From assembly GCA_964522375.1 (NCBI GenBank), contig CAZFVB010000003.1, positions 14,608-78,607 of the forward strand: 64,000 bases of DNA, given 5' to 3'. Of this stretch, positions 1-27,579 are shown piece by piece. How positions within the stretch are numbered: position 1 is the first letter of the stretch; each line of letters begins with the position of its first letter. The notes under the pieces are model-generated. The model saw only the letters and a list, made by a program, of their open reading frames with translations, did not search any database and was not told where the DNA came from. The translations under genes and the position numbers were made by a program. The stretch comes from an uncultured Chloroflexota bacterium. GTDB taxonomy: Bacteria > Chloroflexota > UBA11872.

Positions 1-558
1 GCGCCATACCAGCACTCTTCATGTGCGGTTCCAGGTCGAGGTTGTAGAGATCAGCATTCCACCACAACTCGGACATCACCTCAGGACCAGATCCAGCGAC
101 CATCATGTTGGTCAGGACCCCGGCGTATCCCACCGACGTACTTCCACCGGACCCTGAAATAATCAGGATGTCTACGGTGACATGGGGATTAGCCTTGTTG
201 TATTCCTTGGCCATGAACTTGTGCGTTTCCGCACGAACACCCTTGCTCCAGTCCGTTGAGAATTCCAGACGCACGGCCTGTTTCTGCGGCACCATTTCCT
301 TCACGATCCTGGTGACGACCTTCTCAACGACCTGCTTTTCTACCTTCGTCTTTTCAACGATCTTCTCGACCGGTACTTCTTTAATCTGTGTCTTCTGGAC
401 AATCTTCTCGACCGGTACTTCCTTGATGACGATCTTCTCAACCGGTACTTCCTGAGTCACCGTCCTGACGGTTTCCCCACACGCAGCTAGCGCAACCGCA
501 CCAGCCGCACCGAGCGCACCCGCACTCGAAGCCCGCAAGAGATTTCGCCGAGTCATTC
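1..558 (-). CDS. Sugar-type ABC transporter substrate-binding lipoprotein (family 1 SBP), 3' part outside window
   Basis: Reverse-complement translation from the ATG at 556-554 reads MTRRNLLRASSAGALGAAGAVALAACGETV.., a twin-arginine-like signal plus lipobox Cys. It continues with repeated EVPVEKIV linker units and a family-1 SBP-like body (..MAKEYNKANPHVTVDILIISGSGG..). It is absent from the ORF track because it runs off the window edge. A GGGGGAG RBS lies upstream on the minus strand. Confidence 0.6.
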
Positions 559-601
559 GAGACATCAACTCCCCCTCGTTTTTTTTTAGAATTGATGCAG
601 G

Positions 602-619
602 TGTTTTCACAGGAAAACA
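602..619. promoter_or_regulatory. Perfect 18-bp palindrome TGTTTTC-acag-GAAAACA about 40 nt upstream of the SBP start; candidate repressor operator
   Basis: Read directly: 7-bp perfect inverted arms with a 4-nt spacer. It sits between the upstream gene stop (732) and the SBP start (556), next to an A9/T9 tract at 573-592. Confidence 0.35.
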
Positions 620-731
620 TCGGCCGCACCACCCTATCGGGGGTGTTGTACTTCAACCGGAATAGGCCGTCAAGTTTCAGGGGGGAATTATCATGGACGG
701 AACCACTCCGTCCACCACGAACCAGGCAGGC

Positions 732-1862
732 CTAGACCCTTCCATTCAACACATGGCCCAGATCATCACGAGCCTCAGGATCCATTGCCTGTAAATACCG
801 CAGCGTAAACAGCACGAACGCCAGCCCATTGGTCGTACGACTGCTCGATGACTCGGACTCAGCGACATCGCTAAGCTCAAAATGATAGCCCCCACCCGTG
901 GCGGCCAGACGGTCAACCATCGCTCGCACACATCGCCGGACTGCGTCACGAACACCGCGCTGCCGATATGCCGTCCTATGGCCATATTCGGCCAAAAGAT
1001 GGACCGCATCCATGTTGGCGCACATCCCACCGTCATGAAACAGATCGTCCGACCGCTGACATGCCAGGGTCGCGTCAATCATTCGGGTAAGCCAAGGTTC
1101 CCCGATGCCCAGCGGCCACAGGAGATTTAACGCAAGGTTTCGATGCCCGCGCATCGCCCAACCCAACTCCATCCCGTAGTCCATTCCAATGAACCCTGAA
1201 CCAGCATCTCTGCGAGACTCCAAAAACGCCAGAACCCGACGACTCGTGCTGTCGAGTTGCCGGAAAGTCTGGATGCCCGCCAGACCGGTATACAACCACA
1301 GGTATTGAAAGGTTTCCTTGGCCGCCGCCCGGGTGTCGCCCGACCACACCTGTTCGAGCCATCCGTCGACTGACCGCTCCCCCTGCGGCACCCAGGGAAA
1401 AAGCTGCAATCGTTCAAGACCCTGGGGAAATCCGCGAGCCTGTTTGCCAAGAAACTCAAATCCCAAACGCACCACTACATCGTTATGCAAGCGCCAACGT
1501 CCCACACCCCCGGGCACCTGGTTTTTAGTGGGCTCGTACAACTCGAGTTCGGCGTTGAAGGCCAAGTTCAATGACGCCACGATTCGATCCCGCATCCTGG
1601 TGACAGCAGTATCGGCATGGACGTGGCGCAGCGAGGCCAGCGCCCAAACCGTCGTCTCCACGCCCGACATAGTTTCCTGATGCTGGCCTTCACGAAAAGG
1701 CTCACCGGACGCTGTCGAAGCAGTGACACTTTCGATGTAGGTGGTCACCCGATCACACAACCACCGTGGAGGATCATGGAGGCCATCTGCCATCGGCATC
1801 ACCCGCTCAACAAAACCTCCGGATGGAATAGTCCTCACGGAGTTCGACCCACGCTCGCTCAC
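732..1862 (-). CDS. Hypothetical protein, no confident family assignment; same strand and upstream of the SBP gene
   Basis: 376-aa ORF with protein-like composition; I do not recognise a family. The overlapping ORFs 746..1078, 1075..1362 and 1127..1459 are Arg/Gly/Pro-rich antisense artefacts. Confidence 0.4.
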   Translation of the reverse strand: MSERGSNSVRTIPSGGFVERVMPMADGLHDPPRWLCDRVTTYIESVTASTASGEPFREGQHQETMSGVETTVWALASLRHVHADTAVTRMRDRIVASLNLAFNAELELYEPTKNQVPGGVGRWRLHNDVVVRLGFEFLGKQARGFPQGLERLQLFPWVPQGERSVDGWLEQVWSGDTRAAAKETFQYLWLYTGLAGIQTFRQLDSTSRRVLAFLESRRDAGSGFIGMDYGMELGWAMRGHRNLALNLLWPLGIGEPWLTRMIDATLACQRSDDLFHDGGMCANMDAVHLLAEYGHRTAYRQRGVRDAVRRCVRAMVDRLAATGGGYHFELSDVAESESSSSRTTNGLAFVLFTLRYLQAMDPEARDDLGHVLNGRV

Positions 1863-2075
1863 AAGCCCTCAGCATCCATAAAGGACATCCGCCAGACACT
1901 TGTCAGGATCCCAGATCAGCGACCATCGCCACAACGCATGGAGCACCTCGCAGCTAAACCACGTCTCACCCGAAGCCACGCGTTCGACTTCGAACACCCA
2001 TAAACCTTGACGCGCTGACGTCATGCTCCGCAGACCGTAAGATCACCTCAGTGAACCGAGCACGGAGAAACACGC

Positions 2076-3287
2076 ATGAATATCGCCGTCCATTCCAGCC
2101 TCAAGGGTGGCCACGTGCCTCGCGAAACATTCCCCGGACTCTCGCCGGAACCAGCATTCCCCGAAGATGAGTTCCATCGCAGAATCAAGCAGATCCGATC
2201 TCGTATGCGAGACGCCAAGATCGACGTCATCGTGATCAAGCATCCAGCGCACCTTTTTTACGTAACTGGCTTCCAGAGCCTTGCAATGTATGAGGACGGC
2301 GCCGCCATCCTTCCGCTCGACGATGACCCCACGCTGATCCTTCACCCGCCAGAGCTTGGCACTGCGATGCTTCACTCCTGGGTCGGAACCCTGAAGGGCT
2401 TTCCGCCGGAACACAGCCATGCCCAATACCTCGCGCAAGAGCTCAGCATGACCGGTCATGCTCAAGCCCGTATTGGTCTCGAGATGCTAAGCCCGGGGGT
2501 TTCCGCCGGGTTCGTCCGAGACCTCCAGTCAGTGTTGCCGCAGGCAACATTCCATGACGCCTCGGGAGTCATCGAAGAGGTCAAACGAATAAAATCATCG
2601 GCGGAAATCGAACACTTACGTCAAGCCGCGCATTTCACCGACCAGGCCATGGCCGCCGCTATTAATGCGGCCGAGGTCGGATCAACCGACAATGATGTGG
2701 CGGCTGCCGCCGCTCAGGCCATGGTCACCGCGGGCAGTGAAGCTCCATGCATGTCCCCGATCGTCACCAGCGGACGACGCTCCGGAATTCTGCATTCCAC
2801 CCACAAACGCATTCCGCTGGGTGCCGGCGACCCGGTATTCATCGAACTCGGGGGATGCTACCAGCGGTACACCAGCCCCCTGATCCGGACCCTATCGTTA
2901 GGAGACCCGTCATCCGAATTCCGTGATGCCGCTGATGCGTGCCTCGCTGCACTAAACGCTGTCATCACAACAGTAAAACCGGGAATCTCAGCTGCTTCGG
3001 TTGCTGAACGCGGATGGGAGGAGATTTCACGCGCCGGGAGCGATTTCGTATTCCATGGCAACTTTGGGTACACCGTCGGTGCCGGATTCCCGCCCAGTTG
3101 GGCAGATGGAACCGGCCTTCTGGAACTCGAACAGGACATGATCCTTGAGTCTGGCATGGTGTTCCACCACCCCGTGGCTATTCGGCGGCTCGGACGATTT
3201 GCGGTCGGATTCAGTGAGACGACCGTCGTTACCCCTGACGGCTGCGAAGTGTTAACCACCACCCCTCGTGAATTAGCCCTCCGGTAA
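2076..3287 (+). CDS. M24-family metallopeptidase (creatinase / Xaa-Pro aminopeptidase / ectoine-hydrolase-like)
   Basis: 403 aa with the creatinase/prolidase N-domain architecture followed by a pita-bread domain (..HFTDQAMAAAINAAEVGSTDNDVAAA..SGILHSTHKRIPLGAGDPVFIELGGCYQRYTSPLIRT..). RBS GGAGAAA precedes the ATG. Confidence 0.7.
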   Translation: MNIAVHSSLKGGHVPRETFPGLSPEPAFPEDEFHRRIKQIRSRMRDAKIDVIVIKHPAHLFYVTGFQSLAMYEDGAAILPLDDDPTLILHPPELGTAMLHSWVGTLKGFPPEHSHAQYLAQELSMTGHAQARIGLEMLSPGVSAGFVRDLQSVLPQATFHDASGVIEEVKRIKSSAEIEHLRQAAHFTDQAMAAAINAAEVGSTDNDVAAAAAQAMVTAGSEAPCMSPIVTSGRRSGILHSTHKRIPLGAGDPVFIELGGCYQRYTSPLIRTLSLGDPSSEFRDAADACLAALNAVITTVKPGISAASVAERGWEEISRAGSDFVFHGNFGYTVGAGFPPSWADGTGLLELEQDMILESGMVFHHPVAIRRLGRFAVGFSETTVVTPDGCEVLTTTPRELALR

Positions 3288-3295
3288 ATATCAGT

Positions 3296-4048
3296 ATGCA
3301 GCCGACCGTTGGCATCGTTTGGCCAGAGCCCATTAGCACCGATGACCTTGGCGAGATCAACCAGTTCACACCTCCGAACATCAAGGTTGAAGCAGTAGCA
3401 GTTGAGCCAGCACCCGACCTCTCCGGGGGCATCACCCTGGACCACGTACTTTCGATCGCTGCTGACCCGAACATTGAAGCTGCCGGCCGAAAGCTCGTGG
3501 CCTCGGGAAGTCACGCCCTCGCGTACGCCTGCACGTCCGGGAGTTACGTCCGTGGCCTACACGGAGACACCGACATTGCACAGAGGATGCGTGACGCTAC
3601 CGACCGACCAAGCACAACTACCGCCACGGCAACCGTAAGAGCCCTAAAACACCTGCAGGCCAAGCGGGTTGCCGTCCTTTCACCACACATCGACAGCCTC
3701 AATGCCCGGTTACAACGCTTTCTTGAAGCCCACGGGGTCGAGGTGGTGCAGATGGTCGGCCTAAACCGGCTTAATGGGATCGAATCAATACCACCAGACG
3801 AGACCCTGGCCATCGTGCAGCAGCAAGTCGATCATCCGGACGCCGACACGATCTTTATTAGCTGCACGGGGTTACGCGTGGCACCGATCATTACAACGCT
3901 CGAACGCAAACTCGACAAACCCGTAACAACGGCCGTCCAAACGACGATGTGGGATGTCCTACGGTTAGCCCGCGCATTCTGCCCATTGCCCGACCGCGGG
4001 CATTTGTACACGCTCGATTCATCAATGATCGGCCGAGATTCCGACTAG
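3296..4048 (+). CDS. Asp/Glu/hydantoin racemase-family protein (maleate isomerase / arylmalonate decarboxylase / EutA-like)
   Basis: 250 aa starting 9 nt after the M24 gene. Two-lobed racemase-like pattern (..VASGSHALAYACTSGSY.. and ..TIFISCTGLRVAPII..). Confidence 0.55.
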   Translation: MQPTVGIVWPEPISTDDLGEINQFTPPNIKVEAVAVEPAPDLSGGITLDHVLSIAADPNIEAAGRKLVASGSHALAYACTSGSYVRGLHGDTDIAQRMRDATDRPSTTTATATVRALKHLQAKRVAVLSPHIDSLNARLQRFLEAHGVEVVQMVGLNRLNGIESIPPDETLAIVQQQVDHPDADTIFISCTGLRVAPIITTLERKLDKPVTTAVQTTMWDVLRLARAFCPLPDRGHLYTLDSSMIGRDSD

Positions 4049-4198
4049 AACTTCTCCGCAACCGTAGGTCGTAGAGGGTTTCTCTATTTCCAGCCATCGT
4101 GGTAATGTTTCCGCCACGAAATGTTCTGTGGGACATAGTTGCCGAAGCGCTTTGCGCAAAGCGCTGAACTACATCCCACGTACAGGGGAGGGGACATT

Positions 4199-6307
4199 TT
4201 GGCTAAGCACAATGTGATCACGCGACGGAAAGCACTCGTCGCAGGAGCCGGATCAGTATCAGCAGGCCTGTTACTCGCGTGTGGTGACCCTGAAGTTCAG
4301 GTCGTCACCAAGGAAGTCGCGGTCGAGAAGGTCGTTGTTAAGGAAGTACCGGTCGAGAAGATCGTCCAGAAGACACAGATCAAGGAAGTTCCGGTCGAGA
4401 AGATCGTGACACGGAACGTCGTCAAGACCGTTGAGAAGGTTGTCGACCGCATCGTAGTTAAGAAGGTCGAAGCCGAGATTCCATCCCGATTCAACGAAGC
4501 GCCCAGCCTCGCCAAGCTCGTCGCAAGTGGAGATCTTCCGAAAGTCGACGACCGACTACCGAAGGAACCACGCGTCATTGAACCCTTTGAGAAAGTCGGG
4601 AAGTACGGCGGTACGCTGCGCTACATCGACCTCGAAGGTGGTGGGCATCAGACGAGTTCCCTCCGCATTAACGGCCTCCTGACATTTAACCAGCAGGGCA
4701 CTGAGATTCGTCCCGACGTCGCCAAGAGTGCGACCTTGTCCGAGGACGGAAAAACCTTCACCTACGAGCTTCGTGAAGGCCACAAGTGGTCTGACGGCGA
4801 ACCGTTCACCACCGAGGACATCATGTTCTGGTGGGAAGACTTTATGAATGACACAGACCTGAACAAGCGTCTGTCCAGCACGTGGCGACCCGGCGGGGAA
4901 CCGGCCAAATTCACCGCGCTCAGTCCGACAAAGCTTGTGATTGAATTTGCAGTACCGCATCCGGGCATCATGGACCTCCATGGTCGCGCCGTGATGTCTG
5001 GTGATGGCAACTTCTACCTCCCCAAGCACTGGATCAAGCAGTTTCACAAGAAGTACAACCCGAAAGCGGATGAGTTGGCCAAGAAGGAAGGTCACGACGA
5101 CTGGACCCAGTTGTTCAAGACCAAGCGTAATCCGCCCGGAGGATTCCTGGTGGGCCGGCCACGACTCTTTGCCTGGGTGACTACCAAGAAGACGCTGAAT
5201 CAAATCCAGCTCGAACGAAACCCCTATTTCCACTGGGTCGACACGGACGGCAATCAGCTGCCGTATGTCGATGTGGTGGACTCAGTGCTGGTCCAAGACC
5301 AGGAGGTGTACAACCTCCGTCTCATTTCCGGTGACGTGGACTTCGCCATGGGGTACGCAAGCCTCAAGGACATGCCGGCCCTGAAGGCCGGCGAAGACGC
5401 GGGCGGATACAAGATTCGGCTGCCGAAGAGTAATCGGCCAGCGCTCCTTGCGCTGTTCCCGAACCAGACGCACGCTGACCCGGTGGTCCGGAAACTCATG
5501 GCCAATCTCGACGTCCGAATCGCGCTATCCATTGCCATCGATCGAAAGGCCATGAACGAAGCGATCTTCTTCGGGCTCGGCGAACCCTTCGCGTTCACCG
5601 TGCTTCCGAGCATGCCCTACTACAAGGAAGAGTGGGGCAAGGCGCACACCGAGTTCGACCCCGTACGGGCCAACAAGCTGTTAGACGATGCAGGCCTCAC
5701 CGAGCGTGACTCGGAGGGGTATCGCCTCCAGCCAGACGGGAATCGATTCACACTCGTCATGGAAATCGCCAACCTGGAAACCCCCAAGGAAGCGATGTGC
5801 GAGATGGTGGCCGAGAACTGGAAAGACATCGGTGTTGAAGGCATCGTCAAAGTCGAAGCCTTTGGACCCTTCCAGGAACATAAGGCCGATGGAACCATGG
5901 ATATTGGCACCTGGCATGCGGATCGAGGCGGACTGTTTGGCCGCCTAAGCCCACTCTGGTTTGCCTATAACAGCACATGGAACATGTGGGGACGCCGCTG
6001 GGTGGAATGGTTCACCTCTGATGGCGAGAACGGTGAAGAACCACCCCAGTACATCAAGGATCACAAGGCGCTCTTTGACGAGTTCCTGAAGACCCAGACC
6101 GGAACGCCTGAAAACATCAAGCTCGGGCGTGAGTACTACCAATTCTTCACCGACCAACTGCCGGTTATCGGCACGATCGGGTGGGCACCACGACCAATGC
6201 TCGTGCATAACCAGCTGATCAATGTGCCAAAGACCAACATCTGGTGGAGTTCTGACACCAGCTTCTATCCGCCCTACCGGGCCGGACAGTGGTCGTTGGA
6301 CAGGTAA
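4199..6307 (+). CDS. ABC transporter substrate-binding lipoprotein, family 5 (peptide/nickel/opine, DppA/OppA-like)
   Basis: The ORF is open from 4139, but TTG 4199 lies 7 nt after GGGGAGGGG. From there the protein reads (M)AKHNVITRRKALVAGAGSVSAGLLLACGD, a Tat-like signal plus lipobox. A repeated KEVPVEKIV linker follows, then a family-5 SBP body to 722 aa. Confidence 0.8.
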   Translation: MAKHNVITRRKALVAGAGSVSAGLLLACGDPEVQVVTKEVAVEKVVVKEVPVEKIVQKTQIKEVPVEKIVTRNVVKTVEKVVDRIVVKKVEAEIPSRFNEAPSLAKLVASGDLPKVDDRLPKEPRVIEPFEKVGKYGGTLRYIDLEGGGHQTSSLRINGLLTFNQQGTEIRPDVAKSATLSEDGKTFTYELREGHKWSDGEPFTTEDIMFWWEDFMNDTDLNKRLSSTWRPGGEPAKFTALSPTKLVIEFAVPHPGIMDLHGRAVMSGDGNFYLPKHWIKQFHKKYNPKADELAKKEGHDDWTQLFKTKRNPPGGFLVGRPRLFAWVTTKKTLNQIQLERNPYFHWVDTDGNQLPYVDVVDSVLVQDQEVYNLRLISGDVDFAMGYASLKDMPALKAGEDAGGYKIRLPKSNRPALLALFPNQTHADPVVRKLMANLDVRIALSIAIDRKAMNEAIFFGLGEPFAFTVLPSMPYYKEEWGKAHTEFDPVRANKLLDDAGLTERDSEGYRLQPDGNRFTLVMEIANLETPKEAMCEMVAENWKDIGVEGIVKVEAFGPFQEHKADGTMDIGTWHADRGGLFGRLSPLWFAYNSTWNMWGRRWVEWFTSDGENGEEPPQYIKDHKALFDEFLKTQTGTPENIKLGREYYQFFTDQLPVIGTIGWAPRPMLVHNQLINVPKTNIWWSSDTSFYPPYRAGQWSLDR

Positions 6308-6350
6308 AGCAGTCCAATACTTCTGCATACCTAGCCGCAAGCGTTGGCAA

Positions 6351-6388
6351 CCGCTCCCCGATCTTATGAATGATCGGGGGGCGGTTTG
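6351..6388 (+). terminator. Intrinsic terminator / intra-operon attenuator between the SBP gene and the permease genes
   Basis: CCGCTCCCCGATC-ttatgaat-GATCGGGGGGCGG hairpin (13-bp stem, 1 mismatch) followed by TTTGT. This is typical of differential expression of the SBP relative to the permease/ATPase genes. Confidence 0.45.
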
Positions 6389-6514
6389 TCAGCGATGCTT
6401 GGTTCCTCCAGGCCCACGACATGCGTCGTTGGCACAGAAGCCGAACCTTGGCATCATTCCCCCTAACATCGATCGCGCTGCGATGACGTCATCGCATGGG
6501 ATTCGGACACGCTC

Positions 6515-7507
6515 ATGATCGAGTACATCGGCCGGCGTCTCGTCTACATGGCCATCTCGTTTGTGCTGCTAAGCATCGCTGTCTTCGTCATCATCCGACT
6601 CCCGCCAGGCGATTACATGCAGACCTATATTCAGCAGTTGGAAGACCAGGGCGAAAAGATTGGCGCCGCCGAAATCGCGGACCTGAAGCGGTACTACGGC
6701 ATTGATGTGTCCGCGCCTGAACAATATTTCCGATGGATCACCAAGTTTGTCACCGGGGATTTTGGTCGGTCATTTGAATTTCGAGAGCCCGTACGAGACC
6801 TCCTCGACCAAATGCTTCCCTTCACGATACTCATCTCCACGCTCACGCTCATCATCACGTATGGAGTCGCGATCCCGGTTGGGATCTATGCCGCGACCCA
6901 TCAGTACAAGCTCAGTGACTACGTCACGGCGTTTATCGGATTCCTCGGCCTTGCCATTCCAAATTTCATGCTTGGCCTCATCTTGATGTACGTCTTTCTT
7001 CAATTGTTCGGCATCAGTGTGGGCGGCCTGTTTTCACGAGAAATGTCCGGGGCGCCGTGGAGCCTGGCCAAGGTCTGGGACCTCATCCAGCACCTCTGGG
7101 CCCCAATCATCATTATTGGTACGGCCGGAACCGCGGGCCTTATTCGGGTGATGCGAGGCACACTCCTAGATGAACTCGGACGCCAGTACGTGATCACCGC
7201 CCGGGCCAAAGGTGTGGCTGAACCACGCCTCTTATTTAAATACCCCGTGCGCCTGGCTATCACCCCAGTCGTCAGCACCATTGGCTGGCAACTGCCATTT
7301 ATCCTGTCCGGCGAAACGATTGTCGGCATTGTCCTTAGCCTGCCAACCGTTGGGCCATACCTCTTCCGCGCACTGATGGGACAGGACATGTTCATGGCCG
7401 GCAGCCTCGTCATGATGCTCGGAATCTTCACCCTGATCGGCACGCTGATCTCAGACCTCCTGCTCGTCATCGTCGACCCTCGTATCCGATTCGACAGGAA
7501 ATCCTGA
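6515..7507 (+). CDS. ABC transporter permease (DppB/OppB family)
   Basis: 330 aa polytopic protein with the ABC TM permease signature region (..ITARAKGVAEPRLLFKYPVRLAITPV..). Confidence 0.85.
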   Translation: MIEYIGRRLVYMAISFVLLSIAVFVIIRLPPGDYMQTYIQQLEDQGEKIGAAEIADLKRYYGIDVSAPEQYFRWITKFVTGDFGRSFEFREPVRDLLDQMLPFTILISTLTLIITYGVAIPVGIYAATHQYKLSDYVTAFIGFLGLAIPNFMLGLILMYVFLQLFGISVGGLFSREMSGAPWSLAKVWDLIQHLWAPIIIIGTAGTAGLIRVMRGTLLDELGRQYVITARAKGVAEPRLLFKYPVRLAITPVVSTIGWQLPFILSGETIVGIVLSLPTVGPYLFRALMGQDMFMAGSLVMMLGIFTLIGTLISDLLLVIVDPRIRFDRKS

Positions 7508-7508
7508 G

Positions 7509-8648
7509 ATGAGCGCTACCCCCGACACCCTGTCCAGCGAATCACCAGCCCCGGGCGGCCTTGACCCCAACGACCGATATTTCATTGCCTCGCAATGGAC
7601 GCTTATGCGGCGAAAGTTCCGGCGTCATAAGTTGGGCGTCATGAGCGTGTGGATCTTGCTGTTTCTGTACTTTATTGCGGCAACCTACGATTTCTGGGTC
7701 CCGTATCTCTCAGTCACGCGTTTCGAAAATGCGTTGGCCGGTCCACCAAGCGCGGTGCACATCGTCGACGATGACGGCCAGCTACGGCGGCCTTTCGTAT
7801 ACGGCCGTTCTGCGGTCCTCAACACCAAGACGTTCACCCGTGACTACACGGAAGACACATCCATGATCTGTGACATCGAGTTCTTCACCCAGGGCCAGGC
7901 CTACAAGATGTGGGGCCTGATCGAGACTGATCGCCATTTCTTCGGGGCCGGCGACTGCAACATCCACCTGTTTGGGACCGACGAATTTGGCCGTGATGTC
8001 TTCACCCGTACATTGGTCGGAGCCAGGATCAGTCTGTCCGTTGGTCTTGTGGGCGTGTTATTTAGCTTCATCCTCGGAACCCTGCTCGGAGGCATCTCAG
8101 GCTTCTTCGGTGGATGGATCGACATGGCGATCCAACGGGTTGTTGAGTTCTTGGTCGCAATTCCGACCACACCATTCTGGCTGGCCCTCAGCGCAACCAT
8201 CCCGGTCACCTGGTCACCCATCCAAACCTATTTTGCAATCACCGTCATTCTGTCCATCGTGGGATGGGCTCCGCTAGCCCGGACGGTTCGCGGCAACGTG
8301 CTCCAGCTACGTGAGCAGGACTATGTCATGGCCGCCAAAACAGCCGGGGCCCGGGACCGTCGGATACTGCTGGACCACCTGCTTCCCGGCTGCATGAGCT
8401 ACCTCATCGTGCACATCACCCTCTCCATCCCCGGCATGATTCTTGCCGAGACCTCGCTGAGCTTCCTCGGCCTCGGAATTCGAGCACCCGCGGTGAGCTG
8501 GGGCAGCCTGCTCCAGAGCGCCCAGAACGTCACAACGATCACCGTCCAACCCTGGCTGATGATTCCAGGCCTCTTTGTCATCGCGACCGTGCTGCTCTTT
8601 AACTTTGCCGGCGATGGGTTGCGTGACGCAGCCGATCCCTACAAGTAG
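7509..8648 (+). CDS. ABC transporter permease (DppC/OppC family)
   Basis: 379 aa starting 2 nt after the previous gene, with the N-terminal extension typical of DppC/OppC and an EAA-like motif (..VMAAKTAGARDRRILLDHLLPG..). Confidence 0.85.
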   Translation: MSATPDTLSSESPAPGGLDPNDRYFIASQWTLMRRKFRRHKLGVMSVWILLFLYFIAATYDFWVPYLSVTRFENALAGPPSAVHIVDDDGQLRRPFVYGRSAVLNTKTFTRDYTEDTSMICDIEFFTQGQAYKMWGLIETDRHFFGAGDCNIHLFGTDEFGRDVFTRTLVGARISLSVGLVGVLFSFILGTLLGGISGFFGGWIDMAIQRVVEFLVAIPTTPFWLALSATIPVTWSPIQTYFAITVILSIVGWAPLARTVRGNVLQLREQDYVMAAKTAGARDRRILLDHLLPGCMSYLIVHITLSIPGMILAETSLSFLGLGIRAPAVSWGSLLQSAQNVTTITVQPWLMIPGLFVIATVLLFNFAGDGLRDAADPYK

Positions 8649-8655
8649 GCCCCCA

Positions 8656-9651
8656 ATGCCAGACGCCGACATCCTCTTAGAAATCAAGAATCTCCGCACC
8701 CATTTCGCGCTCGAAGAAGGCACCCTAAAAGCCGTCGATGGCGTGTCACTTACGATCAGGAAGCACCGCACCCTTGGCATTGTGGGCGAGTCCGGTTGCG
8801 GCAAGAGCGTCACGGCCCAATCCATCCTTCGAATCGTTCCGAAACCAGGAACCGTGGAGGGGGAAATCCTGTTGCACACCAACGAGGACGTCGTTGACCT
8901 CGTGTCACTGAATCCATCAGGACGCTCAATTCGAAACATCAGGGGCCAGGACATCTCCATGATCTTCCAGGAACCAATGACCGCCTTTTCTCCAGTGCAC
9001 ACGATTGGGAACCAAATTATCGAAGCGATCCAGGTCCATGGGGAAGTCGCAGACGACGAGGCACGTCGCCGGGCCGTCTCCCTGCTTGAGCAAGTTGGAA
9101 TTCCAGAACCAGCCTCTCGTATCGACCAATATCCGTACGAGTTCTCCGGGGGCATGCGTCAGCGCGCGATGATCGCCATGGCCCTTGCCCTACAACCACA
9201 ATTGCTGATCGCTGATGAACCCACGACGGCGCTCGACGTCACGGTGCAGGCCCAGATTCTTCGACTCATGCAGCAGCTACAAAACGATCTGGGAATGGCA
9301 ATCATCTTCATCACGCACAATTTGGGCGTCATCGCCAACATGGCAGACGATGTCGCTGTGATGTATCTCGGGAAAGTCGTTGAACTCGGGACCGTCCAAC
9401 AGATTTTCCATGACCCCCAACATCCCTATACCCAGGCCCTACTACAATCGATCCCACAACTCGATCGGAAGCCCGGGGAACGATTGACGGCTATTGATGG
9501 CATCGTGCCAACACCGCTCGACCCGCCGGATGCCTGCGGCTTTGCCGACCGTTGCCCCAAGTTCATCCCGGGCCGCTGTGACACTGCGGTCCCGCCGTTA
9601 CTTACCCTCAGCAGCAACCAGCAGGTGCGCTGCGTGCTGTACGAACAGTAG
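8656..9651 (+). CDS. ABC transporter ATP-binding protein (DppD/OppD-like)
   Basis: Walker A GESGCGKS, signature FSGGMRQR, Walker [13 protein letters not shown], and a C-terminal oligopeptide-ABC Cys-rich tail. The ATG at 8656 follows the permease stop; the ORF-track start at 8575 overlaps the permease and is unlikely. Confidence 0.85.
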
Positions 9652-9728
9652 GCCCTAGATGTGGTTCCGACATCCCTCAGCGATTCGACACCTCGCATCG
9701 AGGCATCACCCCCAAGAGGGCGTCGTCT

Positions 9729-10763
9729 ATGAGTGAACCAAGTCCCGTCACTGACGCAGCTCCCACCCTCCTCGAAGTCCGTGGCCTCAAAAAACACTTC
9801 CCAATCAAGCAGGGGCTTTTTCGAAGAACCATCGGTCACGCGCGGGCTGTAGATGACGTGAATCTCACGGTGCGTGCGGGCACAACCCTTGGGATTGTGG
9901 GGGAATCTGGCTGTGGCAAGACGACGTTAGGCCGATGCATTGTGCGAGCTATTGATCCAACAGCTGGCCAGGTGTCCCTACGCATCAATGGCGAAATGGT
10001 TGAGATCAGCGACCTCTCCGCCGGGCGATTACGCCCCTTAAGAAAACATCTCCAAATGGTGTTTCAGGACCCCTATTCCAGCCTGAATCCCCGCAAAACC
10101 ATCCTGGATATCGTCTCAGAGCCATTACGTATTCACAATGTCGCCAAGGGTGCCGAACTCGAGGACCAAGTCTGCGAACTGCTTAAGGTCGTGGGCCTCG
10201 ACATTCGATATCTAAAGCGTTACCCGCATGCCTTCAGCGGTGGACAACGCCAGCGCATTGGGATTGCCCGAGCGCTCGGGCTAAACCCCGACCTCATTGT
10301 GTGCGATGAACCGGTGTCGGCACTGGATGTCTCAGTTCAAGCTCAAATCATCAACCTCCTCGAAGATCTCCAGCGTGAATTCGGATTAACGTACCTGTTC
10401 ATCGCACATGACCTGAGTGTGGTGAAACATATTTCCGACGAAGTTGCCGTGATGTATGTCGGAAAATTAGTTGAGCAGGCCGAAACCGAGGATTTGTTCA
10501 GGCAACCCAAGCATCCCTACACCGAGGCCTTGCTCTCCGCAGTCCCCCGTCCTAACCCCGATACGAAACTAGACGCCATCACTCTTGAGGGCGAAGTTGC
10601 GAGCCCCTCCAATCCACCATCGGGATGTTATTTCCATCCTCGCTGCCCCTACGCCGAGTCAATATGCGAAACCGAAACACCTCCGTGGACCAACGTCGGC
10701 CACAACAGATATGCCGCCTGTCACTTCGCCAATGACTTAAACCTACGGGGAGTTGACGACTAA
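9729..10763 (+). CDS. ABC transporter ATP-binding protein (DppF/OppF-like)
   Basis: Walker [10 protein letters not shown], signature FSGGQRQR, Walker [13 protein letters not shown], and a C-terminal Cys-containing tail. Confidence 0.85.
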
Positions 10764-10766
10764 ATC

Positions 10767-11195
10767 ATGCTCGTACTCGGGATTGGTATATGGCTCGTAT
10801 TCACAATCCTCATAATCATCCTGATCATTCGGTGGAACGTAGATAAATTTGGATCCCACGTTGAAGCCAACCATCGGGCAGCGGAAGACATTATCAATCA
10901 CGGGTGCGTACCCACCGCCTGGCTCCAGCCATTTCACGACCAACTCACCGAAACATCCCAGCAGGAAACCCCGGAAAACCTTAAGGAATCCGTTGGCCAA
11001 CAAATACTTGATCACTGTGTCGAAAAACTTGACACGTTAATCCGATACTTCGAAAAGAATCGGTTCGCGGCCGACGAGGAGGCCCGCTCAATTCTTCTGG
11101 AATCACTCACCAGCCGTAAGTCGGAATGGATGAATGGGGGTGGCCAGTCAATGCTGGCCCTCGCCGCCAACCAAAAAGGAGCCAGACAGCCATGA
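10767..11195 (+). CDS. Small hypothetical membrane-anchored protein at the end of the transporter operon
   Basis: 142 aa with an N-terminal TM (LVLGIGIWLVFTILIIILII). The start is 4 nt after the ATPase stop, and the stop overlaps the next gene's ATG (ATGA coupling at 11192-11195). Confidence 0.35.
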   Translation: MLVLGIGIWLVFTILIIILIIRWNVDKFGSHVEANHRAAEDIINHGCVPTAWLQPFHDQLTETSQQETPENLKESVGQQILDHCVEKLDTLIRYFEKNRFAADEEARSILLESLTSRKSEWMNGGGQSMLALAANQKGARQP

Positions 11196-12049
11196 AAATT
11201 GCTTATGGAACGTATGCCATGCCAACCGTGGCGTTAGAAGACGCCATCCCGGCCCTCGCGGATATCGGCTACGACGGCGTCGAAATCTGTATCGGGGAAC
11301 GGCATATCGGATCCATGCCAAGCGAATTGACACCGGACCGTCGGACACAGCTCAAGCAACTGTTAACCCAGCACGAGCTGGGAATCCCGGCGTTTTATGT
11401 ATCTGGCGCTCACACTCTCGAACTCGATGATGCGCAACATCAGACCAACCTCGAACACGTCCGTCGTGTCGCCCAACTCGGACACGAACTGGAGGCAGTC
11501 GGAGCCTGGGGGGGGCCGGTCGTAAGTCTTGGAATTGGCGGAAAGTCTGACCAGTGGGAACACATCAAGCACGACATCGTCCGGCGGTTGAACGATTACG
11601 CCGCCATGGCCGTAGAGGAAAATGTCCTGGTCGCGGCAGAAGCTCATTCAGGGGCTGCCGTTGACCGAACGGAACGAGCCTTGTGGGTCATTGAGCAGGT
11701 CGATAGCCCGCTGGTGAAATTGCACTTCGATATTGTGCATACCTTCCTGGCCGGTGAGCGTGTGCAAGATTCGGTACGAGATCTGGTCCCCATAACTGGG
11801 CACACACACATCACAGACGCGCACATCTATCCTGACGGATCTCGAGATCTCCTCCTGCTCGGCCAGGGCCAGCTCGATACCGTCGGGTATCTCAAGGCCA
11901 TGCATAAGGCTGGCTGGACTGACTTCATCACGCTGGAAGTTAGCGGCATGGTCTGGGGCCGAGATGACTACGATCCGATCGCAGCCGCTGTGTTTTCCTA
12001 CCAGACCATCGATCGAGCCTTTGGAGAAGCGGGGGTACCCCGTGAGTAG
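11192..12049 (+). CDS. Sugar phosphate isomerase/epimerase (xylose-isomerase-like TIM barrel)
   Basis: MKIAYGTYAMPTVALEDAIPALADIGYDGVEIC.. is typical AP-endonuclease-2/xylose-isomerase-like TIM barrel. RBS AAAGGAG lies upstream. The ORF-track start at 11126 is upstream and overlapping. Confidence 0.65.
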   Translation: MKIAYGTYAMPTVALEDAIPALADIGYDGVEICIGERHIGSMPSELTPDRRTQLKQLLTQHELGIPAFYVSGAHTLELDDAQHQTNLEHVRRVAQLGHELEAVGAWGGPVVSLGIGGKSDQWEHIKHDIVRRLNDYAAMAVEENVLVAAEAHSGAAVDRTERALWVIEQVDSPLVKLHFDIVHTFLAGERVQDSVRDLVPITGHTHITDAHIYPDGSRDLLLLGQGQLDTVGYLKAMHKAGWTDFITLEVSGMVWGRDDYDPIAAAVFSYQTIDRAFGEAGVPRE

Positions 12050-12135
12050 CTCCGCCTTGCCACGACGCAGGCCACGGGACCTACGAATAGCCGCATTCCG
12101 TTGGAACGGCACCATCACGAAAGACCGAGGTTGGC

Positions 12136-13221
12136 ATGGCGAGTAACCCGGAATTATCGATAGGCATTATTGGCGCGGGAAGCATTGGAACACGACATGT
12201 GTCGAACCTCGAGGTCATGGGTGACGTCACGGTATCCGCCGTATGCGACACCGTTCCCTCACAACTCGAGACGCTCGCAGGCCGGGCCAAGGCTCACGCC
12301 TATACCGACATCGCCGAGATGTTCAAGGGGGAGCCAGACCTTGATGCAGTCGTGATCTGTGTGCCCCCGGTCATCCGCCAACAAATCTTCGAACTTGCCG
12401 CTGCACATGAGGTTGCCGTGTTCTGCGAAAAACCGCCGGCATCAAGCATGGAGGACGCACAGGCGGTGGCCCGGATTGTTCGCGATAGCGGAATGATTTG
12501 CAGTGTCGGGTTCAACTGGCGGTATTCGCCGGCCGTCCAGTACATGCGACGGTTACTGCACGAACAACCCGCCCAACTGGTGCTCAGCACGTTTCTTTCA
12601 GGGGGTGGGTCGGTCGTTGGCCTACGACGAGAGGCCAGTGGCAATTGGTTCTTTAAGAAAGCAATATCCGGTGGGCCGAATCTCGATCAGGCAATCCACG
12701 TTATCGACCAAATGCGCTTTCTCATGGGCGAAATTGTGAAAGTCCAAACGTTTGCCACCAACCTCATTCCCAAATCACAGGACTTTACGGTTGAAGACAC
12801 CACCTCCACGAACCTGCAGTTTGCGAGCGGCGCCACGGGGATGCACGTGCACTCGTGGGGCACACCGCCTCCAGGTGATAACCGCTTCAAACTCATCGGG
12901 CTCGATTATTGGCTCGAACTTAAACCGTATACCCCCGCCCAGGTTCAAGGATCGATGGGGGATACGAGCGACAATTTGGAAGAAATCGACAAAACGTTCG
13001 CCCAGGATTTCACGGATGCACGAAACGAGCGGGTCGTCGAACCACCAGACCCGTGGCACTACGAAGAAATTAAAGTGTTTCTGGACGCCGTCCGAACGCG
13101 CGACACGAGTCGAGTACATAGCAGTTACGACGATGGCATGCGGTCACTAGCCGTGGTTCTGGCCATGAATCGATCCATTGACTCGGGGGAAGCTGAGGCC
13201 ATCGGAGAACTAACACCATGA
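12136..13221 (+). CDS. Gfo/Idh/MocA-family NAD(P)-dependent oxidoreductase
   Basis: N-terminal Rossmann motif IGIIGAGSIGTRH and the EKP motif (FCEKPPA). Confidence 0.75.
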   Translation: MASNPELSIGIIGAGSIGTRHVSNLEVMGDVTVSAVCDTVPSQLETLAGRAKAHAYTDIAEMFKGEPDLDAVVICVPPVIRQQIFELAAAHEVAVFCEKPPASSMEDAQAVARIVRDSGMICSVGFNWRYSPAVQYMRRLLHEQPAQLVLSTFLSGGGSVVGLRREASGNWFFKKAISGGPNLDQAIHVIDQMRFLMGEIVKVQTFATNLIPKSQDFTVEDTTSTNLQFASGATGMHVHSWGTPPPGDNRFKLIGLDYWLELKPYTPAQVQGSMGDTSDNLEEIDKTFAQDFTDARNERVVEPPDPWHYEEIKVFLDAVRTRDTSRVHSSYDDGMRSLAVVLAMNRSIDSGEAEAIGELTP

Positions 13222-13260
13222 CCCCAATCCGTTTCCTCCCATACCCTGCGTCTCTCATCC

Positions 13261-14181
13261 GTGACAAGAGGAGATCTGGCCATGCATCACTCAACTGACC
13301 AGCAGGCCATCCTTACGGCCGACCAAAAACAGTTCTGGCAGGACAATGGCTACCTTCGACTGGAGAAGGTTTTCACTCCCGAACAAGTCCAGGACCAATC
13401 GGATGAACTTGAGCGGATGATGCAGGAATGGGGTGCCATGGGACAGGGATGGCGTGGACCATGGCGCAAAGCGATCATGGAAGCCGATGAAGCCGATCAA
13501 GCCAAGGCCCTGATCCTTGCCGGACTTCAGAACTACTCGGCCACGTATCTGCAAGCCGTCGTCAACCCCACACTGACCGGCGCCGTCAGTACATTGCTCG
13601 GCGATACCGCCGTTGAATTCCACCACTCCGTCCTTCACGCCAAGGCCCCAGGCCTCGGCACCCCCTTCCCCATGCACCAGGACTGGCCCTTCTACCCGCA
13701 CTGGGGTCCAGGATGCGTGGCCGCCATCATGCATATCGATGCAGCAAATGAAGACAACGGATGCCTTTCCTTCCTCCCTGGCAGCCACAAGAATGGCCCG
13801 CTTCAACACGTGCTGCATACCGTCGAGGACTACGGCGAATACGAGCAGCCCTACCTTCCAGTCGAGGAATATCCGCTCGAATCGGCCGTCTTATGCCCGG
13901 CAGATGCTGGCGATGTCGTGTTCTTCAACGTGAACACGGTGCACGGATCGGCGCCAAACCGGACCGACGGATGGCGACGGCTTATTCGGGTCGTGTACCG
14001 GGACCCAGAAAACCCAGCCCTCTTGCCGCAACATACCCACTGGACCGGGCCAACTCACAACCGCAGCAAGTCAAAACCTTCGGAAGACCCACGAGGAATG
14101 ATTGTCCACGGCAAATATCATCGCCCGGAAACAACACCCGAACCGTCCGAACCCACGCTAACCGGACAAGCACCGAATTAA
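13261..14181 (+). CDS. Phytanoyl-CoA dioxygenase (PhyH) family Fe(II)/2-oxoglutarate dioxygenase
   Basis: PhyH-like pattern (..WQDNGYLRLEKVFTPEQV.., HQDWPFYPH, ..NTVHGSAPNRTD..). Start could be ATG 13282. Confidence 0.6.
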   Translation: MTRGDLAMHHSTDQQAILTADQKQFWQDNGYLRLEKVFTPEQVQDQSDELERMMQEWGAMGQGWRGPWRKAIMEADEADQAKALILAGLQNYSATYLQAVVNPTLTGAVSTLLGDTAVEFHHSVLHAKAPGLGTPFPMHQDWPFYPHWGPGCVAAIMHIDAANEDNGCLSFLPGSHKNGPLQHVLHTVEDYGEYEQPYLPVEEYPLESAVLCPADAGDVVFFNVNTVHGSAPNRTDGWRRLIRVVYRDPENPALLPQHTHWTGPTHNRSKSKPSEDPRGMIVHGKYHRPETTPEPSEPTLTGQAPN

Positions 14182-14233
14182 TGAATCCACAACGTCAATG
14201 TGGAGCTAAGTTCACACCTGTCGGAGGACGTCC

Positions 14234-14638
14234 ATGAGCAGCAGTCAAATGACGGAGCGGGACGCAAAAGTCATTTCCAACACTGCGGTCGAACCCGAGC
14301 GCATCGAACTGGAAGGATTTCAACGGACCGTTACTAAGTTGCTCGAAACAACCCGCATGACCGTCCACGTTGCGACCTTTGACCCGCAACAGGCTGGTTC
14401 TCATCATGTCCATCCCAAATCCGAGGAAGTGACGTACATCATCAGTGGGGCAGGTGCCGTTACGGTTGGAACTCGAACCCTCGATCTGTCGGCCGGCGAC
14501 CTGTTCTACGGTCCGCCGAATGTCCCGCACCAATTCCGCAATACCACCAACGAACCGCTTGTCCTATTTTCGATCTATAGCCCACCTGACGAACTCCCGC
14601 TCTACGGAAATCTGCCAACCGCGAACGACGAGGCGTAA
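14234..14638 (+). CDS. Cupin-domain protein
   Basis: 134 aa with cupin motifs (HHVHPKSEEVTYIISGAG.. / ..GDLFYGPPNVPHQFRN). Confidence 0.6.
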   Translation: MSSSQMTERDAKVISNTAVEPERIELEGFQRTVTKLLETTRMTVHVATFDPQQAGSHHVHPKSEEVTYIISGAGAVTVGTRTLDLSAGDLFYGPPNVPHQFRNTTNEPLVLFSIYSPPDELPLYGNLPTANDEA

Positions 14639-14645
14639 TCCCCCG

Positions 14646-16223
14646 TCAACACCCTTCCAGGTGACGAAGTTCCGGCCATATGGACTTCATCGACCATGCC
14701 GACAGCGACTGGAGACGGGCCGGACCTCCACGGGCAAAAAGCGCCACCCCGGCACTATCCTCCCGCGACGGATAGGTGCGAAGGGTTAAGCATTGTTGAT
14801 CACCCACAAATACTTCCACCACGCTTCTATCAACGAATACGCGGAGACGCAACAAGTCGTCCGGGTCCGATGTGAGCGGCCCAATCTCAGGATCTCGTGC
14901 ATACACATCCTCACGTAGTGACGCCTGAGAGATATCGATTTGCAAACGAGGTGTTCCGCCCACTTGGCCGGTCTTGGCCTGAAGTAACGAGATCCGTGTC
15001 TGTTCTACGCCGTCAGGAGATCGAAGCACCGCAATCCCGACCTCACGAGCCTCTCCCGGATCAATCACCGCCTGGATCTCGAGCGCTTTTCCATTCACCG
15101 TGTCGATCGGAATCTCCGTATTCCCAGGAATCTCCATTGAATCGACGACCACCTCATCGCCCCGTAGCGACTCAATCTCCTCGACTGGCGCCATACGAAG
15201 CGACGCGTCCGAATCCAACCAATAGTGACGGGGCAGCGTCATCACATCGGTCCACGCCGTTCCAGCACGACCTTCCTTCACATTAAACACACCGATGTAC
15301 CGACCCTGGTCATCCACCGTCGCGGTTGGCGCGTGCAGGCTACCCGTTGCAAACGCGCCATAGTTCATCCGTCCAAACCGTTCAGGATTCAGACGATGCG
15401 TCTCACGGTCATAGGTTCCGATGTAGTACTGCCCGGCCCGTTTATGACTAAAGAAAAGCATCATGTGGCGACCGTCGCCAATGGGCCAGAAATTCGGCAC
15501 CGCGCCGTCCTCACCGGGTTCCGAGTGAAAACCGCCTTCGATAAGCGTGCCAACATGTTCCCAGGTAGAAAGGTCCGACGATCGAAAGAGGTGGTCTATT
15601 GCGCGGCAATCCGCCCGTAATTCACCATCCTTATAAGTGCCTGAAATGGCGTAGTACCCGTCATCTTCTTTCCAGATGCACGGATCGAACACCCGGTATG
15701 GAGATCCATCCGCATCAATCGGAACCATCGGAATAACCGGGTTATCCGGATGCTTGGCCCAATTCAGCAGCAACGGATCCGTCGCCGTCGCAATACTGTT
15801 ACCGGATTCAGTACCGTGATAAATCGCAATCACTCGATCCGGTTCGACCAGCGTTTGCCCGCTATAACAATGATGCTCGGTTGTCGGATAGAGGGCCGGC
15901 GGAAGATCCGTCCAGCGGACGAGATCATCACTGACCGTGTGCCCCCAATGCACCCGGTTTTCGTTATCAGGTTTCCCCCACTGCGGGCGAAACTGATAGA
16001 ACATGTGAAAACGTCCTTGCCACTGACATAACCCATTGGGGTCATTCATCATTCCCTGCGGTGGCGAAAAATGAAACAGCGGACGATAGGGATCCGTAGC
16101 AAGTGCCTGCCGCGAAGCCAAGAACTCCGCAAGGTCAGGATCTTCGGCTAATGCCGAACGCTGGGCCTCTAATTCATCCGGAAAGATCCGACCATACAGA
16201 GGTGTGTGGGCCATTGCTCTCAA
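14646..16223 (-). CDS. Glycoside hydrolase family 32 (beta-fructofuranosidase / levanase / inulinase-like)
   Basis: GH32 hallmark MMNDPNGL near the N-terminus (..FHFSPPQGMMNDPNGLCQWQGRFHMFYQF..), an RDP-like region and a C-terminal beta-sandwich, 525 aa. Confidence 0.8.
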   Translation of the reverse strand: MRAMAHTPLYGRIFPDELEAQRSALAEDPDLAEFLASRQALATDPYRPLFHFSPPQGMMNDPNGLCQWQGRFHMFYQFRPQWGKPDNENRVHWGHTVSDDLVRWTDLPPALYPTTEHHCYSGQTLVEPDRVIAIYHGTESGNSIATATDPLLLNWAKHPDNPVIPMVPIDADGSPYRVFDPCIWKEDDGYYAISGTYKDGELRADCRAIDHLFRSSDLSTWEHVGTLIEGGFHSEPGEDGAVPNFWPIGDGRHMMLFFSHKRAGQYYIGTYDRETHRLNPERFGRMNYGAFATGSLHAPTATVDDQGRYIGVFNVKEGRAGTAWTDVMTLPRHYWLDSDASLRMAPVEEIESLRGDEVVVDSMEIPGNTEIPIDTVNGKALEIQAVIDPGEAREVGIAVLRSPDGVEQTRISLLQAKTGQVGGTPRLQIDISQASLREDVYARDPEIGPLTSDPDDLLRLRVFVDRSVVEVFVGDQQCLTLRTYPSREDSAGVALFARGGPARLQSLSAWSMKSIWPELRHLEGC

Positions 16224-16286
16224 TATTCCCGTGTCATACCTGTCTTCATCATCGCACTTTCGCGCACGATCTTCGGCGACCTGAAT

Positions 16287-27162: not shown

Positions 27163-27167
27163 CTTCC

Positions 27168-27503: not shown

Positions 27504-27579
27504 CTACCGATGCGGAAATCGACGGCCACCACCACGTCGGCAATTTCATCTACCTGGACTCTGTCCTGATCTCCACGGA

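Follow-up and report, generated by a model that had tools for sequence, protein, structure and literature searches.

We propose that an inverted DNA repeat lying near the start of a 64,000-nt stretch of an uncultured, probably marine Chloroflexota bacterium (the whole stretch is called the window here) is probably the coding DNA of an N-terminal tether module shared by lipoprotein substrate-binding proteins (SBPs) of ATP-binding cassette (ABC) importers, a module that would work as a spacer, would have been copied between genes long ago and could be used as a recombination junction. The two genes concerned are gene A, the minus-strand lipoprotein gene at the window start, and gene B, the plus-strand SBP_bac_5 lipoprotein gene at 4199-6307. 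They share the repeat because both encode a homologous tether of the KEVPVEKIV type, and the copies are inverted because the genes are divergent, with no switch function. The features on which the argument is built are the following:

1-565, minus strand: 5' part of gene A, which runs off the window start, covering the RR-type signal peptide and its lipobox, the tether and the first portion of a family-1 substrate-binding domain.
482-565, minus strand: signal peptide of gene A, MSRMTRRNLLRASSAGALGAAGAVALAA, with lipobox LAAC and the Cys codon at 479-481.
287-481, minus strand: tether of gene A, which begins with the lipobox Cys, ends with KEMVP and has 65 residues (translation and tether alignment).
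357-460, no strand: arm 1 of the inverted repeat, 104 nt, 87% complementary to 4304-4407.
4304-4407, no strand: arm 2 of the inverted repeat (repeat search).
356-424, minus strand: 69-nt core in gene A, encoding KEVPVEKIVQKTQIKEVPVEKIV, 64/69 identical to 4340-4408.
4340-4408, plus strand: 69-nt core in gene B, whose 23 residues (KEVPVEKIVQKTQIKEVPVEKIV) are those of the gene A core.
4199-6307, plus strand: gene B, with TTG start, RR-type signal peptide ITRRKALVAGAGSVSAGLLLAC, tether and SBP_bac_5 domain.
4280-4477, plus strand: tether of gene B, which begins with the lipobox Cys and has 66 residues (tether alignment; Tandem Repeats Finder, TRF).

The repeat search gave a 104-nt inverted repeat whose arms (357-460 and 4304-4407) are 87% complementary and separated by 3843 nt, and a scan of the whole window showed this pair to be the sole inverted repeat of at least 40 nt. 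In the core, the reverse complement of 356-424 matches 4340-4408 at 64 of 69 nt (92.8%) and 18 of 23 codons, with a longest exact run of 23 nt, and all five differences are synonymous. The similarity is not restricted to the core, as the two tethers can be aligned along their full length and are 82% identical in DNA over 159 nt. Furthermore, a 26-nt unit, AAGGAAGTACCGGTCGAGAAGATCGT, occurs six times in the window with at most three mismatches per copy, three times on the minus strand (357-382, 399-424 and 429-454) and three times on the plus strand (4310-4335, 4340-4365 and 4382-4407), and no additional copy was found elsewhere in the window, the number expected from 100 shuffles being 0. The spacings between units in the tethers are 30 and 42 nt, i.e. 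10 and 14 residues, and TRF detected a period of 30 at 4299-4366 in the gene B tether. The initial annotation of this DNA had described near-identical inverted DNA in the two lipoprotein genes, which proved to be right, identity and length both lying above 80% and 30 nt; its coordinates (352-420 and 4348-4415) were off by 4-8 nt and the identity is 93%, not 94%. A megablast search of window positions 1-8000 against plasmids returned a trivial permease match only.

Related contigs were collected from a metagenome scan with gene B (L120, L121 and L122) and through exact-protein look-ups (L123, L124, L125 and L126); a look-up of this kind with the M24 peptidase yielded no source contig. Short repeats can mislead assemblers, and one of these relatives, the short contig L125, is visibly chimeric at its end; however, both arms and their flanks are reproduced by independent contigs from other samples (L122, 99.7% identical; L123, 96%; L121, 91.6%), so that an assembly artefact or a chimera is an extremely improbable origin for the repeat and was discarded.

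The products of genes A and B are predicted lipoproteins, with the lipoboxes LAAC (gene A) and LLAC (gene B) located directly before the repeats and after a basic n-region and a hydrophobic core. Gene A begins with MSRMTRRNLLRASSAGALGAAGAVALAAC followed by its 65-residue tether, and its ATG at 565 is preferred over the one at 558 because the second Met is replaced by Leu in L121. Gene B begins with (M)AKHNVITRRKALVAGAGSVSAGLLLAC followed by a 66-residue tether, and its TTG start is backed by the protein P0001 (MAKHNV...). The twin-arginine-like sequences TRRNLL and TRRKAL are visible in the A and B signal peptides and an RR pair is present in most members of the tether family; no twin-arginine (Tat) signal hidden Markov model of Pfam or NCBIfam was reported at E <= 0.01. 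A lipobox scan of the window revealed no convincing lipoprotein besides A and B. The mature part of gene B contains SBP_bac_5 (PF00496) at 189.5 bits. The 188-aa fragment of gene A present in the window had no Pfam match, and P0008, the full-length 543-aa form of gene A on the 96%-identical contig L123, matched SBP_bac_1 (PF01547) with 28 bits (cut-off 26) and is followed on L123 by a BPD_transp_1 permease gene. Gene A had been called a sugar-SBP; the SBP_bac_1 match of P0008 sustains its assignment to family 1, and its product is at most a putative sugar binder. NCBIfam gave no name for gene A, for its L121 variant or for the open reading frame (ORF) at 732-1862.

In both genes the tether is made of 65-66 residues arranged in 10- and 14-residue units (KEVPVEKIV plus 1 or 5 residues) and is rich in V, E, K, P, T, Q and I. 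The translations place it right after the lipobox Cys in A and in B, as had been proposed from the start. A scan of a species-representative genome collection with a degenerate DNA pattern for KEVPVEKIV returned more than 119 coding stretches. The motif lies 8-59 residues after a lipobox in at least 49 genes from at least 32 metagenome-assembled genomes (MAGs) labelled Chloroflexota, SAR202, Dehalococcoidia or Anaerolineales, several of them with sponge-type bin names or being long-read chromosomes; OZ244802, OZ242271, OZ240251 and OY764080 are examples of complete Chloroflexota chromosomes with the module. The usual layout in Chloroflexota, the phylum of the closest relatives of genes A and B, is ...LAAC followed by GETQVVTKEVPVE..., and among the matches listed the tether length ranges from 27 to 120 aa. 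Behind these tethers there are domains of at least eight families (SBP_bac_1, SBP_bac_8, SBP_bac_6, SBP_bac_5, PBP_like_2, OpuAC, Peripla_BP_6 and DUF4349). Searched with a profile of signal plus tether, 1.84 billion representatives yielded 263 clusters (E <= 1e-3), and of the 150 best clusters about 120 combined an RR signal and a lipobox with the tether. With the gene A tether as query, a word-indexed homologue search returned only 3 short fragments.

The module had been considered lineage-specific. This stands for the layout, since signal, lipobox and tether were found together only in Chloroflexota-labelled MAGs among the matches listed, but not for the KEVPVEKIV motif itself, which is also present in OmpA linkers of diderm bacteria, in large repeat proteins of Clostridia and Spirochaetes and in eukaryote-like proteins. 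Outside the lipoprotein tethers, Clostridia, Spirochaetes, Verrucomicrobia/Kiritimatiellae, Bacteroidales and others have VEKIVEKEV.VEVPVE arrays that are long, internal and not preceded by a lipobox. We also observed that the Clostridia/Christensenellales loci L003, L005, L011, L031, L034, L051 and others encode proteins of up to ~2100 aa with VEKIVEKEVKVEVPVEVEKIV arrays, which just precede a conserved C-terminal ...PRLTLDEAYA.LSKEQKKYFD.L... segment; there are many paralogues per MAG, and the one tested (L023) had no Pfam match. The eukaryote-type proteins P0005, P0059 and P0142, with CAP-Gly, PDZ and Mcp5_PH/PH domains, contain up to eight internal matches to the tether profile, so this V/E/K/P repeat vocabulary occurs outside bacteria too. 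The tether had no match in Pfam, NCBIfam or the PDB (the latter by sequence search), and literature searches with motif strings and for Chloroflexi lipoprotein linkers and SAR202 or sponge binding proteins yielded no description of it. A lipoprotein N-terminal linker is a known kind of element; what seems to be new, with no earlier description in the libraries searched, is one that is repetitive, conserved in sequence across many families and distributed by lineage.

The peptide of the tether is under strong purifying selection and is the best-conserved part of these proteins among paralogues. When gene B of the window was compared with those of L120 and L121, all three genes having 696 codons, the ratio of nonsynonymous to synonymous substitution rates (dN/dS) in the tether was 0.04-0.17, without any length change. 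In paralogues from other genomes, tethers are 85-91% identical in amino acids vs 35-52% for the mature domains, with a proportion of nonsynonymous differences (pN) of 0.05-0.09 vs 0.34-0.47, and at the DNA level the tethers keep 81-93% identity along more than 200 nt. The A/B pair of the window is therefore a modest example of a general pattern among paralogues. Such a conservation is unexpected for a mere spacer and suggests a specific interaction. It does not extend to silent positions, because the dS of the gene B tether between the window and L120/L121 (0.30-0.52) is not below that of the mature domain (0.23-0.25), and for this reason selection at the nucleotide level was rejected as the cause of the likeness between paralogues. 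As a separate observation, the first ~180 nt of gene B (in the 4199-4400 region; they comprise the signal peptide and the beginning of the tether) accumulate 14, 8 and 8 substitutions per 60 nt against L120 and 10, 7 and 7 against L121, 2-3 times those of the mature domain (about 3-4), and the signal peptide shows 15 synonymous and 0 nonsynonymous changes in 21 codons when compared with L120; this 5' module may have a history different from that of the rest of the gene.

How much DNA identity should be expected from two genes that encode the same peptide depends on the codons allowed. With a generic null (window codon usage, same peptide) the core should be 80.4 +/- 3.3% identical, far from the 92.8% observed (P = 3e-4), but this null is too generous because the units share position-specific codons and the tethers of other species match nearly as well. 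In fact, units from 51 genes use GAA for Glu at position 2 in 84% of cases vs 35% in the background, GTC for Val at position 5 in 84% vs 35% and CCG for Pro in 78% vs 46%, and the pattern AAG GAA GTn CCG GTC GAG AAG ATC GTn recurs across the phylum. Moreover, tethers of other species are 80-85% identical to those of the window over 113-124 nt, and A and B are each other's best DNA match only narrowly (score 88 vs 83 for other species). A null built with position-specific codon frequencies from other genomes predicts 85.7% for the core, and the observed value exceeds it with P = 0.023. Most of the A/B DNA identity is thus a property of the whole tether family, and the core alone is modestly above expectation.

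Part of this codon pattern could be related to translation signals. For Glu in the nAG-GAR-Gnn context, GAA is used in 118 of 131 cases in tethers (window 357-454 and 4310-4407 plus loci L001-L119) vs 38% elsewhere in tethers, and with AAG ahead and GTn behind, the choice of GAA keeps the Shine-Dalgarno-like AAGGAGGT from arising. In mature domains the shift for this context is weak (GAA in 13 of 27 vs 35%), and Shine-Dalgarno avoidance was accordingly not retained as a proven cause of the GAA choice.

These data leave some room for the explanation that no DNA exchange took place, the two tethers being alike solely through the same peptide vocabulary and a context-dependent codon choice. The position-specific null, the closeness of tethers from other species and the GAA preference are all in its favor, and we regard it as possible, although clearly less probable than a contribution of past copying. 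Against it, the core is still above the stricter null, and the spacer QKTQI is common to A and B of this species group when other genomes have TQTQI, MQTQI, IQTQI or RETEV in that place. In addition, when ancestral states are set by parsimony with L121 and L124, the cores of A and B were closer to each other in the ancestor than they are at present; synonymous rates in the tether are not lower than in the mature domains, so nucleotide selection cannot hold the paralogues together. Finally, the tandem paralogues L046a, L046b and L089 of another genome carry mosaic tethers, from which it follows that exchange does occur in this family. Under the explanation we prefer, the A/B identity would have two sources: a shared peptide written in a position-specific codon pattern, which would account for about 86%, and a past copying or gene conversion over the ~70-nt core.

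Inversion is another matter. The initial annotation had suggested that the repeats can mediate inversion of the 3.8 kb between them, and the layout does invite the idea of an invertible segment that swaps promoters and signal peptides between the two SBP genes, whether it serves as a switch or simply rearranges often: the segment is bounded by inverted repeats, it contains the 5' ends of the two divergent genes, and since both arms share one codon register, neither reading frame would be lost in an exchange. However, the inverted arrangement was seen in none of eight arm-spanning observations in seven contigs (L120-L126; arm 1 spanned by three contigs and arm 2 by five), all eight being parental, including those of a relative at ~92% identity. 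The longest perfect match, within an 87% identity, is 23 nt, a length at the lower limit for RecA-type exchange. Neither a recombinase nor an integrase domain was recognised by Pfam or NCBIfam in the genes between the arms or next to them, the flanks being transporter genes, and other genomes have this tether DNA both in tandem genes and in dispersed ones, which makes its inverted orientation here incidental. The claim did not survive these results and we consider an invertible segment very unlikely.

L122 is collinear with window 1870-5231 and L121 with window 288-16318, keeping the divergent A/B arrangement. L120, 93.9% identical, is collinear only from window 3911 onward. In the part that corresponds to window 1-3910 (L120 positions 1-9730), it has other genes, among them a 1116-aa minus-strand ORF, in place of gene A, the ORF at 732-1862, the M24 peptidase gene and most of the Amdase-type gene; the region between the two SBP genes differs from strain to strain. 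It had also been suggested that the number of repeat units should be compared among strains, and no differences were found in these relatives, although by the same automatic linker measure the orthologue from another species, L001, has a 94-aa tether vs 72 aa in the window.

A clear use of the tether as a junction was found in gene A, at the following place:

288-325, minus strand: 3' end of the gene A tether and recombination breakpoint; 35 nt (325-291) identical to L121, with similarity collapsing at ~288-290.

Gene A and its L121 counterpart are ~90% identical through the signal and the whole tether, and from nt ~288 the identity falls to ~50% in nucleotides and 35% in amino acids. The permease downstream in L121 is 66% identical to that of L123, a window-type strain. 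L126 joins a window-type signal and tether (96%) to an L121-type domain at the same junction, and P0006 is the same chimera of window tether and L121 domain at the protein level. Behind a single promoter, signal and tether there are thus two deeply divergent transporter cassettes in circulation, with the endpoint of the exchange at the tether 3' end, and this is direct evidence that recombination has made use of the tether boundary. Conserved as it is between transporter genes that otherwise have little in common, tether DNA could act as a recombination junction; in related strains the mature domain of gene A and the downstream permease have been swapped for a divergent cassette. A bolder proposal goes further: signal, lipobox and tether would form an exchangeable cassette that provides portable homology for swaps of whole ABC-transporter cassettes (binding domain and permeases) behind a promoter, signal peptide and tether that stay fixed, and the tether would be a sequence-specific structural element of the Chloroflexota envelope, acting for example through lateral association like that of articulin or alveolin repeats or through docking to a wall component, rather than a passive spacer. 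We put this forward as a speculation that is more likely wrong than right by a good distance.

Several results weigh against the view of a shared tether with old copying and junction use, and they are considered together here. The genome scan was keyed on one exact 9-mer, its counts being lower bounds and the taxonomic spread partly sampled. The proportion of synonymous differences (pS) between A and B over the whole tether is 0.58, i.e. saturated, which also favors the explanation by codon choice alone. As regards gene conversion, 12 sites separate A from B orthologues, and gene B of the window is B-type up to 4339 and A-type at 4348, 4375, 4378 and 4379; but L124, 84% identical overall and a likely outgroup, shares most of these A-like states, which then look ancestral. 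We therefore did not accept 4348-4379 as firm proof of a recent conversion tract from A to B; the sharing of these states with L124 indicates instead an old copying or conversion, before the species group diversified, and not an ongoing exchange. The simpler reading of these sequences would be that the cores of A and B started out almost identical in the ancestor and diverged later. Similarly, the EK-to-DR change present in both L121 genes was rejected as proof of conversion, since the codons differ (GAC CGG vs GAT AGG) and the change is parallel. The conversion between the two linkers contemplated in the initial annotation thus keeps in its favor the excess in the core and the A-type states of B alleles, and loses any indication of being ongoing; it is plausible, probably old, and its evidence is modest. 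The breakpoint of the cassette swap is a single junction, seen in two contigs. Finally, a single-sequence AlphaFold2 model of gene B residues 1-174 gave a predicted local distance difference test (pLDDT) value of 40 throughout and 33-47 across the tether, with the adjacent domain equally poor, and is uninformative.

With respect to its function, the tether would be an extended, non-globular, zwitterionic spacer, whose 65-66 residues, at 0.30-0.35 nm per residue, would reach ~20-24 nm when fully stretched. Beta-branched, Pro-rich compositions argue against helices. In this way it could hold the binding domain off the lipid anchor, letting it work within or beyond the wall layers, and its description as an envelope-spanning linker of monoderm lipoproteins is reasonable as an inference. 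A spacer role would also be consistent, by analogy, with the presence of KEVPVEKIV directly before the peptidoglycan-binding OmpA domain in four diderm genomes (a Deltaproteobacteria MAG, a Prevotella MAG, a Perlucidibaca genome and a Melioribacteraceae MAG), where it takes part in the linker between barrel and peptidoglycan domain; there, however, the motif is internal instead of following a lipobox, belongs to another lineage and has one to a few units. The hinge of E. coli OmpA is Ala/Pro-rich. Non-globular extended spacers dominated by P, E, V and K, elastic or rigid, are known from the PEVK segment of titin and the Pro-Glu/Pro-Lys spacer of TonB, which are unrelated proteins whose likeness to the tether is only compositional.

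Among bacterial lipoproteins, the closest parallel is found in the outer-membrane lipoproteins of E. coli, whose disordered N-terminal linkers have a demonstrated role in Lol sorting to the outer membrane (bioRxiv 10.1101/2021.01.05.425367). Like them, the tether comes directly after the Cys (here predicted to be lipidated), is of low complexity without a recognisable fold and would separate anchor and domain; unlike them (non-repetitive and not conserved in sequence between proteins), it is repeated, has 27-120 aa and is conserved over at least eight families in Chloroflexota, mostly behind RR-type signals. The retention of a short module that is kept alike, with recombination junctions at its boundary, also resembles concerted evolution or domain shuffling of paralogous surface-protein genes, except that the homogenised part is here the tether and not an antigenic or functional domain, and that the evidence for recent conversion is weak.

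The unusual conservation of the peptide for a spacer could alternatively mean that the tether is a self-associating beta-rich element, similar to those of articulins and alveolins, that links lipoproteins into a layer on the membrane surface. Articulin and alveolin repeats form filaments, and the short V/P/E/K-rich repeats of the tether resemble the articulin VPVP--V-V-V- units and the alveolin repeats (PMC2120578, PMC4303705). As in articulin, alveolin and platein repeats (Pfam IMCp, PF12314), the units are short, in tandem, rich in V, P, E and K and with charges in register, EKIVEVP and VPVEKIV being nearly the same words, and a spirochaete array of the same motif exceeds the IMCp cut-off (27.2 vs 21.1 bits). 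Nevertheless, those proteins belong to the eukaryotic cortical cytoskeleton and make filaments from a 12-residue period, whereas the window tethers repeat every 10 and 14 residues; nothing points to a common descent, and IMCp matched neither the two window tethers nor two other Chloroflexota tethers even at E <= 10. Besides, the PDB sequence search found no solved relative, the AlphaFold2 model does not help, and the use of the motif in OmpA linkers fits a spacer equally well. We hold self-association to be quite unlikely, and the spacer remains our preferred function for the tether.

Other genes of the window are summarised as follows:

732-4048, mixed strands: genes between the arms, namely an ORF without family (732-1862, minus), an M24 peptidase (2076-3287, plus) and an Amdase/Asp_Glu_race protein (3296-4048, plus).
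6515-10763, plus strand: Opp/Dpp-type permeases (6515-7507 and 7509-8648) and ATPases (8575-9651 and 9729-10763) served by gene B.
14646-16223, 19300-21573, 21620-23203, 13261-14181 and 32490-33485: wider-window genes, listed jointly (GH32, DMFA2_C/Laminin_G_3, DUF2961 and PhyH-type).

Downstream of gene B, Pfam recognised BPD_transp_1 twice and ABC_tran plus oligo_HPY twice. The 376-aa product of the minus-strand ORF at 732-1862 is kept in L121 (2783-3904) and had no Pfam or NCBIfam match. The wider window contains a GH32 hydrolase, a DMFA2_C/Laminin_G_3 protein, a DUF2961 protein and two PhyH-type dioxygenases, with the housekeeping genes uvrB and lepA nearby, and Rfam and tRNA scans of the 64 kb gave no match. 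A 63-nt direct repeat with 83% identity was also noticed at 27110-27172 and 27534-27596. Its first copy corresponds to the last 17 codons and stop of a DUF6772 gene (26251-27162, ...NFLYLDSVLISVDW), and the second encodes ...NFIYLDSVLISTDW without a proper gene ahead of it, with a 111-aa ORF (27168-27503) between the copies; this looks like the insertion of a small gene that duplicated the 3' end of its neighbour, or like a decayed tandem copy.

Chloroflexota, including SAR202 and the sponge-associated lineages that supply many of the matching MAGs, lean heavily on ABC importers, and their cell envelope is poorly understood. The conserved tether is a sequence handle that could mark the lipid-anchored surface proteins of the phylum; its length would be a rough measure of the distance that these proteins span, and it is a target for antibodies or tags in envelope imaging. 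For annotation, the present case is a warning that DNA repeats between unrelated lipoprotein genes are here a matter of module sharing, as opposed to mobile elements or switches. Taken by itself the DNA repeat is an ordinary instance of such sharing, and it is the conserved tether and the cassette junction that deserve the attention of specialists: a cassette swap that ends at the tether boundary suggests one way in which transporter repertoires may be reshuffled between strains.

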